Positions 22,259-51,185 of a stretch of DNA of 64,000 bases are shown piece by piece. This DNA comes from Carcharhinus longimanus (Eukaryota): positions 13,695,411 to 13,759,410 of the forward strand of contig JASCQW010000148.1 in assembly GCA_030264375.1 (NCBI GenBank). The letters run 5' to 3'. A model generated the notes under the pieces. The model saw only the letters and a list, made by a program, of their open reading frames with translations, ran no database searches and was not told the origin of the DNA. How positions within the stretch are numbered: position 1 is the first letter of the stretch; each line of letters starts with the position of its first letter. The translations under genes were made by a program, and so were the position numbers.

Positions 22259-22672
22259 ACACATAACGCAGAATCGCCGAGCAAAAACTGATAGTCAAGT
22301 TCCACATGCATGAGGATGGCATCAATCGAGATCTTGGGTTCATGTCACACTACATTTAACTCCCACCACTTGGCCTGGGCTTGCAAAATCCCACTAACTG
22401 TCCTGGCTCAAGACCATTCACATCTCTTCAACTTGGATTATCCCTCTCTCCACTCAACTTGTCTGTACCTGCAAAGACTCGCATTCCAACCATTATTTTG
22501 CAATTGCGTCTCTGTCTATGCCATGTTTGTGAACCCAACTCTCCACTCACCTGAGGAAGGAGCAGTGCTCCGAAAACTCATAATTCCAAATAAATCTGTT
22601 GGACTTTAATCTGGTGTTGTGAGAATTCTTACTATGCCCACCCCAGTCCAACGCCGGCATCTTCACATCATG
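22259..22672 (+). mobile_element. Penelope-like element 3' end with degenerate hammerhead (22548-22582)
   Basis: RIAEQKLIVKF...GINRDLGFMSHY GIY-YIG C-terminus; cac-ctgagga-a-ggagc-agt-gctcc-gaaa. Confidence 0.85.
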
Positions 22673-23219: not shown

Positions 23220-23975
23220 GTGCTAATTTGGAGCTCCCAAGGTGATGTCAGGATTCAACATGATGCAAGGCAAGTGGAGGTAGTTGATTGGCTGAGCATT
23301 GTTTACTACTTTTATTACTGATAGCTTGTTACGTTATTATTTTATGGTTTATAGTTTGTAAGGGCTGTACTCTGTAATAATGAAGCCCAGGGAAGAAGAG
23401 CCCTACAGTAATCAATGCTTTTTTATGCAGCTTTCAAAGGTTTAATTTAAAGGGATAAGCTGTGGCTGGAAAGCTCAAAGCCACGGTTTTGTTTTTCTGT
23501 TCCATGTGGAAGCCGGGAACATTTCCAGTGCCCAGGGCCAGCATGTGTGCAGCAAGCTGCTCCAGCTGCAGCTTTTGGAAGCCTGGGTTTCAGAGCAGGA
23601 GAGGCAGCTTGGGACGTTGTGAAGATCCATGAGGCAGAGTATCGTGGATAGCACGTAAAGCGAGATGGTCACACCTCAGGCTAAGACTTTACATGCAGGA
23701 AAGGAATAGGTGACCACCAGGCAAGTGGATAAGACAGGCAGTGCAGGAATCTTCTGTGGCTATTCCCTTGCAAAACAGATATACCACTTTGGGTACTGGA
23801 CTTTAATCTGGTGTTGTGAGAATTCTTACTATGCCCACCCCAGTTGGGAGTAATGACCTTTCAGGGAAAAGTAACAGCAGCCGAATTTGTTGCATCGCAT
23901 TGGTTCTGCTGCACAGGAGTACAAAATATGGGAATGCAATAGTCATAGGGGATTCAACTGTAAAGAGAATAGGTC
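23220..23975 (+). mobile_element. Second CR1-type ORF1 relic (zinc-finger region to esterase motif)
   Basis: Similar to 21760-22158; AIVIGDSTV (SGNH/GDSL esterase block I) near 23935-23962. Confidence 0.7.
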
Positions 23976-36310: not shown

Positions 36311-37633
36311 AGATAGAGAGGAACTATTTCCATTGGTTAAGGAATCTAGCAACACAGCACATAGTTTAAAATTTGGAGCTAGGCCTTTTAGGTGCGAAGT
36401 CAGGAAACACTTCTACATGCAAAAAGTGATAGAAATTTGGAACTGTTCTGTAAATGAAAATTGATGTTGGATCAATTGTTAATTTTAAATCTGAGTTTGA
36501 TAGATTTCTGTTAACCAAAGGTATAAGAGGTGATGGGATATACGGCAAATGTGAGCATACAGACATAGGTCGCAAATCAGCCATGAACTTATTGAAAATA
36601 GGCTGGATAAGCTAAATGGCTTATTCCAGTTCTGATATTCTCCACCAGTTATAAGGAGGTGAAGAGGAAGTCAATGCCAAGAGCTTAGCTGGTTTTTGAC
36701 TTAACCCTCTGGTGATTGGCACCTATCACATCCTAGCCACTGATGATAGGCCCTGCAGGGATAGGGCTAGCAGCTTATCTCAATCTTAGGGCTGCAATGC
36801 TGCAAATTCAATGACCTCTCTAGATTCATCAAGGTAAGAATATTCAGACCTTCATCACATCGGACCCCAACTTATAAAACCCCTCTTTCCTTGCTTCCCT
36901 TCACTCTCCTATAATCATGCACCACACTGGTCCAACTATTTCTCCTTGTGCTCAGACGCATCACTAACGTAAACCTCACTTCTCTACAACTTTCATTTTA
37001 CACATTGCTTTGGTTGAACAAAGCAGACACATAATCTAAACACCTCACAAGAATGTATTAACATAACTCCCTCTTACTTACAGAAGGCAGCTAGGACCAT
37101 TTTCAATAGGGGGTTTCTGCCAAAGAAGCTGAACCTGCCTGCAAACCCACTGCCGTGTGGAAGAAAACGGCGAGCTATCAGGAGCTAGGGGAAAGTCTGG
37201 ATTGTGGGGCAATGCTGGAGGAGACTGCACAATATCTTTTTAGACACATATCATTCATTCCTTTATTATTTTCATCTCACTCTACACACTATGGAAGACA
37301 AGCACTAACTTCTTTCAATAGATTACACATTAAAAGCTAATACTCCTTCCTCCCTTTTAAACATACTTTAGAGAATAGATTAGATGGCTGAACCTTCCAT
37401 GCTTAATCATCTCTACTATACGCAAGGTCAGGTTAAGGTATAAGATACCACAGGTGCCAGCTCATTGGAAAGTAAAGTTATAAACCAGCTCTGTTGCAGA
37501 TAATTCACTACAGACCTCTAGGGCCTACACTTCTAAAGAAGATATTGGGCACATTAGGATATTGACCTTGAACAGAATTCATTCAAAACTGGAGGTAAAA
37601 AAGAATTGCATCAAATAGTTATTATCCACTTGC

Positions 37634-37774
37634 CTTTCAGTCATGATTTCTTTTTTCTGGGTGAGTGCCTGGAATTCTGAATCCCCTTTAGCTATCTCTT
37701 TGCTAATTTCTTTCAGAATATTCTCCTGTTCAGTTTTGCGTTGTGCAAGATCTTTTGAGTCTGTCTTCATTAGT
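37634..37774 (-). CDS. CNTRL: CNTRL exon (LMKTDSKDL...QENILKEI...), GC donor
   Basis: tctcag acceptor; AAG|gcaagt donor needed for the phase-2 join to 34123. Confidence 0.9.
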
Positions 37775-38555
37775 CTGAGAAAAATCACATTTTATTATTA
37801 CTACAAATAGTACTAGCAACATAATGAAGAATCAAGTATTTCCCACTTAGTGACAACTTCCATTCTAGTACTAGATTAGGCGAGATGTAGATTTGATTTA
37901 GGATGACACCTACATGCATACTTGATATTTCTTGACTATTTGAAAAGTACAACCAAGATATTTCCATTTCTGACATATTCAATCCTCAATGGTCAAGGAC
38001 TACAATAGATAGGAATCTCCAGAGATATTCATTTGGATCATTAGTAGCAGTGCTGGTGAATATTAGTTCTGCTCAAGTGCCTCAATTGTAAGTTTATGAA
38101 AATGGTCAGAGAATCAAAAAAATCAAAGGAATCTAAAACGTCATTGAAGGTTTGATGTGAATGTGTGGAATTCACTACCACAGAAAGTAGCTGAGGCAAA
38201 AGTGTTGTCTGATTTCAAGAAGAAATTAGATATACCTTTTGGGACTTAAGGGATATGGGGGTGAGGGGGGTCAGGGGGGAGTGCAGGGGCTGGGAAATCA
38301 GGATACTGAACTTGATGACCAGCCATGATAGAAATGAATGGTGGAACAGGCTCAAAGGACCAAATGGCCTAATTACTGCTTCCAGTTTCTATGTTCTCCT
38401 CATATAGGCTAGAAAGTTTTGGATGTTCTCATGGGATCTTCTGATTCGACAATGGCGAAAACTGCCGCAGCAGGTATTCTGGCAGCAGGTGGTGCTGAGA
38501 ACAGGAAACCCCATTGATGGTGGCGGAATCATAAGATCCCACTGGCAGCCAATAG

Positions 38556-38770
38556 CAGTAAAAAGTCTGACAACACTAGGTTTTAGTCCAACCGATTTAT
38601 TTGATAGTAAACGCACGAGCTTTCGAGGTTTCCCTCTTCGTCAGGTGAATGGAGAGTTCTGGCCTTGAAAGCTTGTGCATTTACTATCAAATAAATCGGT
38701 TGGACTAAAACCTGGTGTTGTCAGACTTTTTACTGTGTTTATCCCAGTCCAATGCCGGCACATCCACATG
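38556..38770. mobile_element. Penelope-like pLTR ends in inverted arrangement
   Basis: 69-bp arms 38556-38624 and 38667-38735 with 3 mismatches; same terminus at 40361 and 46467. Confidence 0.88.
38614..38647 (-). ncRNA. Minimal type I hammerhead ribozyme motif
   Basis: Minus strand reads CAC-CUGACGA-A-GAGG-GAAA-CCUC-GAAA-GCUC-GUG: core boxes, stem II with GNRA loop, palindromic AGCU helix III, stem I CAC/GUG. Confidence 0.8.
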
Positions 38771-40360
38771 GTGAAAATTACTGACAGAATATTGAAGTGG
38801 AAACTGCCAATTCCAATAAAAAATTACATATTTGATTATCCTTCCCCACCACCAGCAATGTTCCCTGTACTGCTCATCAGTATACCTCACCCAAGGTCCT
38901 GTTTTCAAGAGGCTGTCTGGACAGTACGGGTTGGCAAGTCATTTTACGCTAAGGGGTGTGGGGGCGAGTGCAGGGAGGATATGGGTGAGGCTAGAATAAT
39001 ACAACTCCCAGTCAGGACCTGGATACATCCATGTAAGCACATCTTAAATGGCCGTGGCAGTGAGGGGGAGGGGGACAGTTCGGGGGGTCTAGGTCATGTG
39101 CAGAATTAGATGCAGAGTAAAGTTTCATCCGACAATGTGCATCAACGCGACCACAGAAGAATATTCTCCCCTGCGTCAGCGTGATATTTGTATTCCATTA
39201 TCTAAAAGCCACATGGTACCCAAGGACCCCTGTTTTTTTTTAATGACCATCCTTACTTAGAGAAGACTAACTCCTCAGGGCGATGCAACAGCCTTTGAAT
39301 TTTACCTTTAAAATAACTGCGTGACTCAAATTCACCATGGAAAATAGGAAAAACCTGGCAACAGGTCATCAATCTGAAACATTAACTCTTTGTTCTTCAC
39401 AGATGTTGCTAGACTTGATAAGTATTTTCAGCACTTTCTGCTTTTGTTACACACTATTCTTCTAGGAGACATCAGCATACTTACAAGTGCAAGATATTTT
39501 TCCATCTTTACACACCCAAGTGGATGAACACACCTGTCAGTAATGTCTTTGTGAGATCTCAGCACGCACAGTGTATGATTTTCTAACTGTTAATTCAAAC
39601 AGCAAGAAAACTGAATTTGAAATTTCTGATGTGGACACTTGGCAAACTAGGGTTCACAAAGCCAGAAAATGATCCATACACTTGCACCCCATACAAGGGA
39701 GAATTCACCAGAGAGAATAATAATCACATGGCCACACCATCTGTGAATCTGCAGTCCCAGCACTCAACACTGACAAGACTTCAAAAAAAGACTGAAATGA
39801 AAATATTCAGATCCATTGCAATACATCAGTCTGGATTTTATGCGGAGAGTAATAATGAGGGTCCATCAACATTAATCATCATTAGAAAGAAAAACTGACA
39901 ACTTCTGGCATCTGCACATTTAAAATGCATAAATCTTTCCACAAAGTGTGTTGTAACAGTTGTAACCTATAAAGGTGATATTGAAAGACAAACATATGCA
40001 CGGACTGTGGTACTTGCCCACTAGCTCTACACTAAAGGTGCCAAAAAAGGGGTGGTACATACAGAAGTAAGTAATTCCTCAAAGTGTAACATTGATAAGT
40101 ACTGCTGAATATATTAGATTCTATATTAGATATCGCTCTTGAGGCTAAAGGGATCAAGGAATATAGGGCGAAGGGGGGAATCAGGATATTGAATTTGATG
40201 ATCAGCCATGATCAAAATGAATAACAGAACAGGCTCAAACAACCAAATGGCCTATTCCTGNNNNNNNNNNNNNNNNNNNNNNNNNNNNNNNNNNNNNNNN
40301 NNNNNNNNNNNNNNNNNNNNNNNNNNNNNNNNNNNNNNNNNNNNNNNNNNNNNNNNNNNN

Positions 40361-40434
40361 TTGGACTAAAACCTGGTGTTGTCAGACTTTTTACTGTGTT
40401 TACCCCAGTCCAACGCCGGCACATCCACATCATG
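40361..40434 (+). mobile_element. Penelope-like element terminus next to an N gap
   Basis: Near-identical to 38700-38770. Confidence 0.8.
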
Positions 40435-40865
40435 ACAGCCAATGGCAGGCCACCACTGCTGCGGGGTGGAGATCCTGCCCATAGTTTGTCTTTAATTATC
40501 TCTAGGGAAAAAATGGTGGATGTGATCATTCTGGGCATGCTAGGTATAACACATCGCATTATTTAGCTAGATGAATCCAATAAAAGACTCTGAAGTCATT
40601 GTGATGACTATTTTGGCATTCAGAAACTTAATTTTTAATCTAAGCCTTCCCAAATGCTTGGAATACCAGAACAATACCAGACTCCTTGTGGATTTTATGG
40701 CAAAAGTGAATGATCTAGCCATACTGAAATAGGAACTTGAGCTTAAAGCTCTATACTTTTGGTAAATACTATCCATTATGTCATTCACTACTGTGCGAGT
40801 ACCTCATGTAATCAGCTTAAATCATTAAAAGCTGCATTCTTTTTGCTTGAAACTCTATTCAGTAC

Positions 40866-40996
40866 CTGAGTTGCTGGTCAGCTTCAACTAATTTAACTGC
40901 AGTCTCCTGTGCCCTTTGCTCCAGCTCTTCTGCATCTTTCTCAGTGTCTACCAAATGTTTCCTGGCATCATCATACCACTGGACAGTTTCTTTTGT
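40866..40996 (-). CDS. CNTRL: CNTRL exon (TKETVQ...DAEELEQRAQETAVKLVEADQQL)
   Basis: tggcag acceptor, gtactg donor, 131 nt. Confidence 0.94.
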
Positions 40997-41849
40997 CTGC
41001 CAGAATGATAAATGACATTAAAAAAACAAATTTGTGTGACTTTGTAAAGTAAACAGTAGAATTACTGTTGTAACTTTCATAGTAATATCCTCAAAAAATT
41101 GATTCAGACATTTAAAAAGGTAGAGATATAATTTACTGAACTAAAGAAAATAAACTGTACGTATATAATCAATGACCGAGAACTTAACAGCACAAAATGA
41201 TGATACTCGGTCCAACAAGTCGCTGTTGGTGCTTATGCTCCATGATCTGAAGCAGGGTTTTAATGCTAAAGCATTTTTGGTGATAATAGTAACATTATTT
41301 TAAAGAATTGAATGAATATAGTAACTGTATCGATTAAACATGATTAAATCCAAGATTAACAAAGATTAATTATGAAATTAATCACAATTTACTTTTTAAG
41401 AGGACACTTGACACCCAACTCGTATTAATTATTCACTAATACAGTGCCACCTCTCTCTATCGTAAGAGGTTATTTTACAAGTATGCACTACCATTAGGGA
41501 GTCTCATCAACAGACTGCGCGTATTCAAAATTTGAGCACGCGCTTTCCAAATTACTGTTAAGCCCCACTAGTGGAACAGACTTGCTAGACTACGTCTGAA
41601 ACACTTTTCTTAAGGCACAAATACTCATTAGCAGTAAAAGTTTTAAATAGTAAATCCGAAATACCTGGTTACATTTTTTGATCAAGTGGTTGCAGTAGGG
41701 AACTCTGTTTTTGTCAAATGTATCAACATGCATCGGTAGGGTGCACAATTGCCTCCCACTCTCTGCATTCAAAATTACACTCAGTGTCTTTACAAGAACA
41801 GGGCACATTTTCACTTCCCTTACCAACTCTATGCTCTTCAAAAAATCAA

Positions 41850-46466: not shown

Positions 46467-46538
46467 CATGATGTGGGTATGCCGGCGTTGGACTGGCGTA
46501 AACACAGTAAAAAGTCTGACAACACCAGGTTTTAGTCC
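46467..46538 (-). mobile_element. Penelope-like element terminus next to an N gap
   Basis: Reverse complement of 40363-40434 with 3 mismatches. Confidence 0.8.
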
Positions 46539-46933
46539 NNNNNNNNNNNNNNNNNNNNNNNNNNNNNNNNNNNNNNNNNNNNNNNNNNNNNNNNNNNNNN
46601 NNNNNNNNNNNNNNNNNNNNNNNNNNNNNNNNNNNNNNNNNNNNNNNNNNNNNNNNNNNNNNNCCCCCAATCTCTGCACCGATGTCTGGCTGTCAGTGCC
46701 AGAAATCCAACTGCCAGAGACTCGCGTAGGCTGTGCCCCCAGCAGGAAACCTGCTACACAGCGTCCGCTTGAGTCTCCCAGCCCACTGCATTGTAAAAGC
46801 AGTGCAACAGGCTCGCAGAATCATTCCCATTATGTTTTCAGAGATTTACTTACAAAGGTTTTTAAGCTTCTGATCAAAATAGTTGAAAGCTTTGGGAATG
46901 TTGCATTACACAGAAGGGTGTTAAAAGGCTTAC

Positions 46934-50364: not shown

Positions 50365-51185
50365 GATGGTGTTCTCTTCCCTGACAGGAAGAGAACACTC
50401 CTGCCTGGTGATTGTCAAATGGTGTTCATTCATCCATTGTCATAGAGTCTGCATGGAGACTTTCAGGAGAACAGTGACCACAACACCGCACAACCCCGTC
50501 ACAGCAACCTCTGCAAGACGTGCTGCATCATATCACGTGAGAACACCATCCACCAGGTACACGGTATGTATTCTTGTAACTTGGCCAACATTTCTACCTG
50601 ATATGCTACAGGAAAGGATGCCCTGAGGCTTGGTACATTGGTGAGATCATGCAGATGCTACGACAATAGATGAATGAACATTACTTGACAATCACCAGGC
50701 AGGAGCATTCTCTTCATGTCGGGGAACACTTCAGCAGTCACGGGCATTCAGCCTCTGAACCTCGGGTAAGCGTTCTCTAAGGTGGCCTTCACGACACAGC
50801 AGAATCGCTGAGCAGAAACTGATAGCCAAGTTCCACACACACGAGGACAGCTTCAACTGGGATCTTGGGTTCATGTCATACTATCTATAATCCCCACAAT
50901 TTGCCTGGACTTGCAAAATCTCAATAATTGTCCTGGCTGGAGACAGTACACACCTCTTTAACCTGTGCTTAATCCTCGCTCCACTCACATTGTCTGTACC
51001 TTTAAGACTTGATTACCTGTAAGACTCACATTCCAAGCATTATCTTGTAAATTGAGTGCATGTTTATATATGCCCTGTTTGTGAACACAACTCCTCACTC
51101 ACTTGAAGAAAAAGCGACATTACGAAACCTTGTGCTGCCAAATAAACCTGTTGGATTTTAACCTGGTATTGTGAGACATCTTACA
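50365..51185 (+). mobile_element. Penelope-like element 3' part (GIY-YIG endonuclease relic) with 5' inverted segment
   Basis: YLICYRKGCPEAWYIGE...RIAEQKLIAKF...DLGFMSYYL; mutated hammerhead near 51100-51134. Confidence 0.85.

Follow-up and report, generated by a model that had tools for sequence, protein, structure and literature searches.

A minimal hammerhead motif in a shark CNTRL intron lies in an inverted Penelope-like element stub and is probably a silent passenger

A hammerhead ribozyme motif within an intron of CNTRL raises the question of whether it cleaves the pre-mRNA that carries it. In the 64-kb stretch of DNA analysed here (the window), the minus strand at 38647-38614 reads CAC CUGACGA A GAGG GAAA CCUC GAAA GCUC GUG, a 34-nt sequence that parses as a type I hammerhead. 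Helix I comprises 3 bp, the C3-A9 segment is intact, and one extra A stands before stem II, which has 4 bp, G10.1-C11.1 among them, and is capped by a GAAA loop; G12-A13-A14-A15.1 is present, and a palindromic AGCU replaces helix III. The core of the minimal type I hammerheads (min-HHRs) of Penelope-like elements (PLEs), C3 U4 G5 A6 N7 G8 A9 / G12 A13 A14 A15.1 / U16.1 H17, is thus complete, and with C as H17 at 38617 the cut is predicted at 38617/38616. This confirms the intact minus-strand hammerhead claimed in a preliminary description of the locus, including its core nucleotides, extra A, palindromic AGCU and cut after CUC. A strict hammerhead descriptor matched once in the 64-kb window and in none of 200 first-order Markov resamples, and no Rfam hammerhead family matched at E<=10 within 37000-41500. 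The Rfam matches to MIR841 and mir-39 were rejected as miRNAs, as they correspond to the hairpin described below and score far under gathering.

The host gene CNTRL lies on the minus strand, where 25 tblastn pieces tile the window. The exon upstream of the intron (40866..40996) has a visible splice site and 84% identity to a Pristis pectinata centriolin-like protein (one match among 32 candidates), in addition to its tblastn match. The downstream exon (37634..37774) is placed by tblastn, a visible splice site and a contig of 4391 nt from the presumed-RNA run X1, which covers only 37634-37779 of the window besides repeats of the PLE family. With both splice sites visible, the motif lies in sense to the CNTRL pre-mRNA in the intron between 40866 and 37774, as first described. 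The downstream exon ends at 37634, as does the piece of the X1 contig, and is followed by GCAAGT (37633-37628, minus strand), a donor of the GC-AG type.

Minimal hammerheads of PLEs, as far as they are described in the main text of Cervera and de la Pena 2014 (PMC4209133), are of type I, with a conserved core, an extra, unpaired nucleotide that separates position 9 from 10.1, a G10.1-C11.1 pair, a palindromic 15.2-16.2 segment and no loop 3. They sit in the pLTRs, mostly as dispersed single truncated copies with some opposite-strand pairs, and fish Neptune is among the elements reported. The shark motif belongs to this class by its core, extra nucleotide, G10.1-C11.1 pair, palindrome and pLTR location, and the earlier attribution of the motif to a Penelope pLTR, as a type I hammerhead of the minimal kind, is upheld by this likeness and by the family copies described below. 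It differs from the Schistosoma families of the same paper in its stem II of 4 bp (7-8 bp in Schistosoma) and helix I of 3 bp (4-5 bp), and the CNTRL copy is unlike the cases presented there in its elasmobranch host and its position inside a long hairpin. RECK-type amniote hammerheads (described in PMC6155905) are similarly of type I, intronic, in sense to the host gene and of retroelement ancestry; however, as that source presents them, they are conserved in birds and mammals and have full helices and tertiary contacts, whereas the CNTRL motif is minimal, lineage-specific, high-copy and hairpin-locked. Neither a stable monomer fold with full helices nor the Rfam hammerhead match that would mark a RECK/HH9 motif was found. 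A non-LTR retrozyme, as defined in the portion of a 2026 preprint consulted (10.64898/2026.07.22.740005), has at least two consecutive tandem units with a complete hammerhead each; the locus has one complete motif and an inverted half partner.

The motif is not confined to CNTRL. A 105-nt query against the shark's own genome gave 2121 first-look candidates, the best 40 of which were scored and are 96-100% identical, and three further searches walking upstream gave 2323, 2496 and 4123 candidates, with the best 40 scored and 30 fetched each time. Through the longest copies this walk passes a pLTR of roughly 330 nt and then enters the end of an ORF with a GIY-YIG C-terminus. One copy (L109) retains 357 open codons with IDDIF and a C-X4-C-xx-C linker, the latter also found in other copies; its GIY-YIG Pfam match scores 23.4 bits, above the cut-off at 22.6, and most of its 43 homologues, the closest 77% identical, carry RVT_1. 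Reverse transcriptase followed by a C-terminal GIY-YIG domain in one ORF is therefore a property of the family copies, not of the locus at 38556-40435. No Pfam family was found in the N-terminal part of the ORF of L110. The tandem arrangement in L110/L121 runs from ORF end through motif and tail to a new ORF start, so that in these and in L124 the motif lies within the pLTR, past the ORF end and ahead of the next ATG; in L124, L126 and L136 it begins 127-129 nt upstream of the ORF ATG. A CX2-5CxxC linker between RT and EN defines the Neptune type according to PMC8557442, seen in part, and by its Cys linker the family is assigned, on sequence grounds, to EN+ Penelope-like elements of this type. 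Among the papers listed by the literature searches none deals with the present shark family or with the CNTRL locus; the supplements of PMC4209133 and PMC11167929 may list shark motifs, and the 2026 preprint sampled one chondrichthyan genome.

Parsing of the window together with 120 loci yielded 77 copies of the motif, the first 30 loci having been selected by likeness to the motif. The full core is present in 57 of the 77 and 42 passed the intact test. Of these 57 full cores, 56 have A as their extra nucleotide, and H17 is U in 49, A in five and C in three, the CNTRL copy being one with C17. C is the faster-cleaving base at this position. A fairer set consists of 47 copies from L031-L120 (among them L031, the locus that supplied the query), retrieved by queries that do not overlap the motif; it includes 17 intact and 18 core-broken copies, and 14 of the 18 breaks are G>A at CpG. 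Pairing was scored in 41 distinct rows chosen from the 77, leaving out the first set, whose members are nearly identical, and a few gapped rows, and 94.6% of 280 cells are paired. One stem II pair alternates between G-C (22 rows) and A-U (16 rows), which may be a single inherited change counted repeatedly; the 10.1-11.1 pair is G-C in 39 rows and G-U in two, and the palindromic 15.1-16.1 segment AGCU has A-U in 40 and G-C in 36 of the 41. This degree of pairing, together with the CpG-broken cores of inserted copies, suggests that the hammerhead fold is kept in element lineages and decays in the copies they insert.

At the CNTRL locus the motif occupies a tailless, 5′-truncated pLTR arm on the minus strand (38556..38665), which shares 96-98% identity with each of the other 39 best-scored copies and stops at the family's inner 3′ end. 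Its inverted partner on the plus strand (38663..38769) contains only the 3′ half of the hammerhead, the pLTR end and a 34-nt tail (38736-38769). The arms, each of ~107-110 nt, are joined via 3-4 nt of CCT(C) microhomology into a stub of 214 bp. The 3′ ends of family copies form two classes, one at reference positions 71-80 and the other at 105-107. The layout of the stub recurs across the family: the 136 loci contain 27 head-to-head pairs lying within 1.5 kb, of which 26 are tailed on one arm and no more than one, and the remaining pair is tailed on neither. A longer inverted unit spanning 1965 nt (L120:1044-3008) breaks this rule, as it is tailed at both ends; it has a duplication of 14 bp. 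An inverted 5′-truncated pLTR with a 30-40 bp tail at one end and a target-site duplication (TSD) identifies EN+ PLE insertions, and the shark stub has all of these; its inverted arms, 34-nt one-arm tail, short TSD and microhomology are like those reported in the consulted parts of Craig 2021 (PMC8557442) and Arkhipova 2013 (PMC3846280), where the head-to-head layout with a one-sided tail is described. The two 3′ end classes also match the two RT start sites known in vitro from the anole element Poseidon PAc (PMC11167929, main text), from which the shark element differs in its ~110-nt arms, its Neptune-type Cys linker and an ORF start ~95 nt past the motif rather than within it. The one-tail layout would accordingly reflect a staggered cut of which both strands act as primers, with two start sites in use, and the rule, which 26 of 27 pairs follow, serves as a genomic check on the in vitro sites. 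The element endonuclease would make a staggered 13-nt cut at the target, both of the cut strands would prime reverse transcription, which would start at the tail end and at a site 34 nt further in, and the two short cDNAs would be joined head to head via microhomology into the inverted stub. The ribozyme itself may originally have served the element's own tandem transcripts, in which two copies would pair through the AGCU palindrome, probably assisted by the element protein.

Insertion as an inverted stub has placed the motif within a strong predicted hairpin. The inverted repeat (38556-38628 / 38663-38735) measures 73 nt at 95% identity with four differences; the 69-bp repeat noted earlier does exist, its length omitting the innermost 4 nt. 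The final 15 nt of the 34-nt motif fall within one repeat arm, and the hairpin has a predicted energy of -117 kcal/mol. The plus-strand arm (38663-38769) is transcribed before the motif, as antisense. Under constrained folding, which yields equilibrium predictions without proteins, the penalty for the hammerhead is 1.5 kcal/mol in isolation, 12.5 kcal/mol with the transcript end 3 nt past the motif, and 18.8 kcal/mol from 14 nt past the motif onward, the last value being equal in 251-nt and 601-nt contexts. The predicted probability of the hammerhead fold is 5e-14 in the full insertion and 1.5e-9 with the polymerase just past the motif, which bears out the expectation that the hairpin would oppose ribozyme folding. 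In the isolated motif stem II is predicted to form with a probability of 0.86 and helix I with 0.58, and the minimum free energy cofold of two isolated motifs is a structure other than the dimeric hammerhead fold. During emergence of the transcript the antisense arm, made first, would capture G12-A15.1, the palindrome, the site of the predicted cut and helix I's 3′ strand, and the intron would then be spliced out with the motif unused. Since this arm precedes the motif and the hairpin is favoured, the ribozyme likely makes no cut in CNTRL RNA.

Contigs of the related organisms E (run X12) and F (runs X13 and X16, one sample) follow the window from 38769 on with 95-97% identity; to the left of 38769 the two organisms have another sequence in common, whereas run X11 carries the element junction. 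A contig of organism F moreover leaves the window at 38548, and the insertion is absent there. The different sequence in E and F at the 38769 junction indicates a lineage-specific insertion, without the conservation at the orthologous site that would mark a domesticated hammerhead.

Taken with the family data, these results make it very probable that the motif is the hammerhead of a high-copy PLE end that entered the CNTRL intron in the form of a truncated, inverted stub, and that it is a likely silent passenger, by prediction closed up in a hairpin of 73 bp, its ribozyme probably inert at this site on the folding models. The preliminary description had instead proposed that the motif could cleave nascent CNTRL RNA. 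Such cleavage, whether through a dimer in trans, a partner hidden by a gap or the PLE protein, and with an effect on splicing or transcript level, would draw on the intact core, the sense orientation, the C at H17, the ability of stem II and helix I to form in isolation and the many family copies that could act as partners; the hammerhead of the anole element is also aided by a PLE protein, cleaving only in its presence (Frangieh 2024, PMC11167929, main text). We judge it highly improbable, however, because the hairpin penalty leaves no kinetic window, the insertion is lineage-specific, and the descriptor finds no second intact sense motif in the 64-kb window, where gaps at 40261-40360 and 46539-46663 could hide one; the partner arm, which lies on the opposite strand, has no CUGANGA. 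Single min-HHRs likewise show no in vitro cleavage and dimers are weakly active in the main text of PMC4209133, and even for the anole element the main text of PMC11167929 reports no RNA-seq reads ending at the cut site. 

The hairpin might instead be the sole biologically visible part of the stub, a 73-bp intronic duplex acting as a substrate for A-to-I editing or small RNAs, whose influence on splicing would be slight at most. ADAR prefers long duplexes and A-C mismatches, and the predicted hairpin, with its energy of -117 kcal/mol, places A-C mismatches at three positions; yet it lies >700 nt from either splice site and the stub is not conserved, and we consider this improbable. It is compatible with a silent passenger, and the two do not exclude one another. 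The mismatches, possible editing sites in the pre-mRNA, fall at 38617/38674, 38577/38714 and 38625/38666, and 38617 is the scissile C17. For CNTRL the ribozyme matters little, being retroelement debris of an already described class, and the shark copies are of use as a natural set of min-HHR variants for tests of dimer cleavage.

The initial picture of the locus was also incomplete in overlooking both the high-copy repeat and a larger unit of 1.88 kb bounded by a TSD, of which the stub forms the left end. Taken by itself, the 214-bp stub lacks a duplication; a 13-bp duplication (38546..38558 and 40436..40448, plus strand, 12/13 identical) instead bounds 38556-40435, its right copy standing directly after a second tailed end. 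In order, the unit consists of the inverted end, a direct tailed end, 1.49 kb of non-PLE host DNA that is single copy in the assembly and has another left neighbour in the two relatives (the cargo, 38770..40260), an assembly gap of 100 N (40261..40360) and a direct tailed outer pLTR end (40361..40435, plus strand), which runs into the ORF ATG as placed from L124, L126 and L136. The gap likely holds the 5′ part of this outer plus-strand pLTR. The insertion splits an older host repeat, with its left half at 38410..38545 (plus strand) and its right half at ~40449-40481. Each of 19 paralogues of this repeat contains the 13-bp word once, and seven of the 19 extend into the right flank above shuffles (<=2/200), the rest more weakly or not at all; their continuations mostly begin with GCCA or GCTG, like the right flank. 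A stub replacing >2 kb of intron was dropped as a candidate after the 13-bp duplication and the split repeat appeared, and a local inversion of the cargo was rejected, as neither strand of the window contains the junction sequence seen in the relatives.

Comparable units occur elsewhere in the assembly. Of 28 inverted units compared, 16 have a duplication of at least 9 bp and four of these enclose >800 non-PLE bases, namely the window unit (38546-40448), L003:1456-2630, L014:1490-2815 and L021:253-1616, with 0.8-1.5 kb of host DNA; the last three have the same layout and perfect duplications of 11-13 bp. A gap of 100 N lies within all four cargo units and within eight of the 12 other duplication-bearing units. 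Such gaps are very often found inside or beside PLE stubs among loci L001-L140, which makes the family a frequent assembly break point. No donor in the assembly was found for the cargoes of the window, L014 and L021 (best 40 candidates scored each), and the relatives' cargo-junction pattern has no match in the assembly at <=2 mismatches; a shorter junction pattern gave two matches compared with one for a control, both with unrelated flanks. In run X11 the cargo is at single-copy depth, the tail-cargo junction is bridged and 38416-38497 is without cover; summed contig depth on the repeat was left out as a copy-number measure.

Two readings of the unit's boundaries have to be weighed against each other. 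In the first, a single genuine composite insertion spans 38556-40435, its PLE ends having brought 1.5 kb of host DNA into the intron. In the second, the true allele is an inverted stub of ~220 bp with the 13-bp duplication, into which an assembler misjoined, through the repeat, a 1.5-kb segment whose proper place is next to a different PLE copy elsewhere. The former is slightly favoured by the duplication at the outer ends, by the paralogues of the split repeat that hold the duplicated word once and continue into the right flank, by the bridged tail-cargo junction in X11 and by the like layout of the other three cargo units. It is also consistent with the contig of organism F, which after leaving the window continues for 1391 letters, a length that would fit a passage from 40439 to the next high-copy repeat at 41845, and with repeat arms of only about 107 nt, which ordinary read pairs would span. 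Host DNA captured between Penelope pLTRs is described from Adineta vaga in the consulted part of PMC3846280, in Pen1_Av with spacers of 0.9-1.5 kb and in a Pen3a unit with NRPS; the shark unit has a like order of ends, but its cargo is non-coding, has no donor found and has an assembly gap inside. A copied segment should leave its donor, so the missing donor, together with single-copy depth in X11, counts against simple transduction, and the left junction is without cover in that run. A misjoin, which we regard as a real possibility short of an even chance, would account for the single-copy cargo and the 100-N gap in every cargo unit, and in L014 the outer arms share a private base that is missing from the inner arm; however, most of the duplication-bearing units without cargo are gapped as well, and the ancestral left neighbour of the cargo, which a misjoin would be expected to leave somewhere in the assembly, was not found there. 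The verdict on the ribozyme is identical under capture or misjoin. A more speculative proposal, which we hold to be doubtful, is that shark Neptune elements relocate rather than copy host DNA, with 1.5 kb of single-copy DNA moved into CNTRL by non-duplicative capture during two-sided insertion; if true, a retroelement would reshuffle its genome, with cargo in four of 16 TSD-bounded inverted units. Were the cargo units real and donor-less, host DNA could travel within shark genomes by way of PLEs, and were they misjoins, they would point to an error that the assembly makes systematically at PLE stubs.

Further fragments of the PLE family, mostly older, lie in CNTRL introns at 22267-22668, 23797-23844, 50482-50884 and 51139-51184 (plus strand), and a minus-strand PLE end at 46471-46538 adjoins the 125-N gap at 46539-46663, which could hide a sense motif. 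An older hammerhead copy at 22548-22581 is antisense and damaged. Beyond this gene, three annotated shark proteins (P0014, P0033 and P0043; a PPP1R12A-like protein, a USP8 isoform and one uncharacterized protein) include stretches 72-84% identical to the PLE ORF, which are either exonised PLE pieces or annotation errors.
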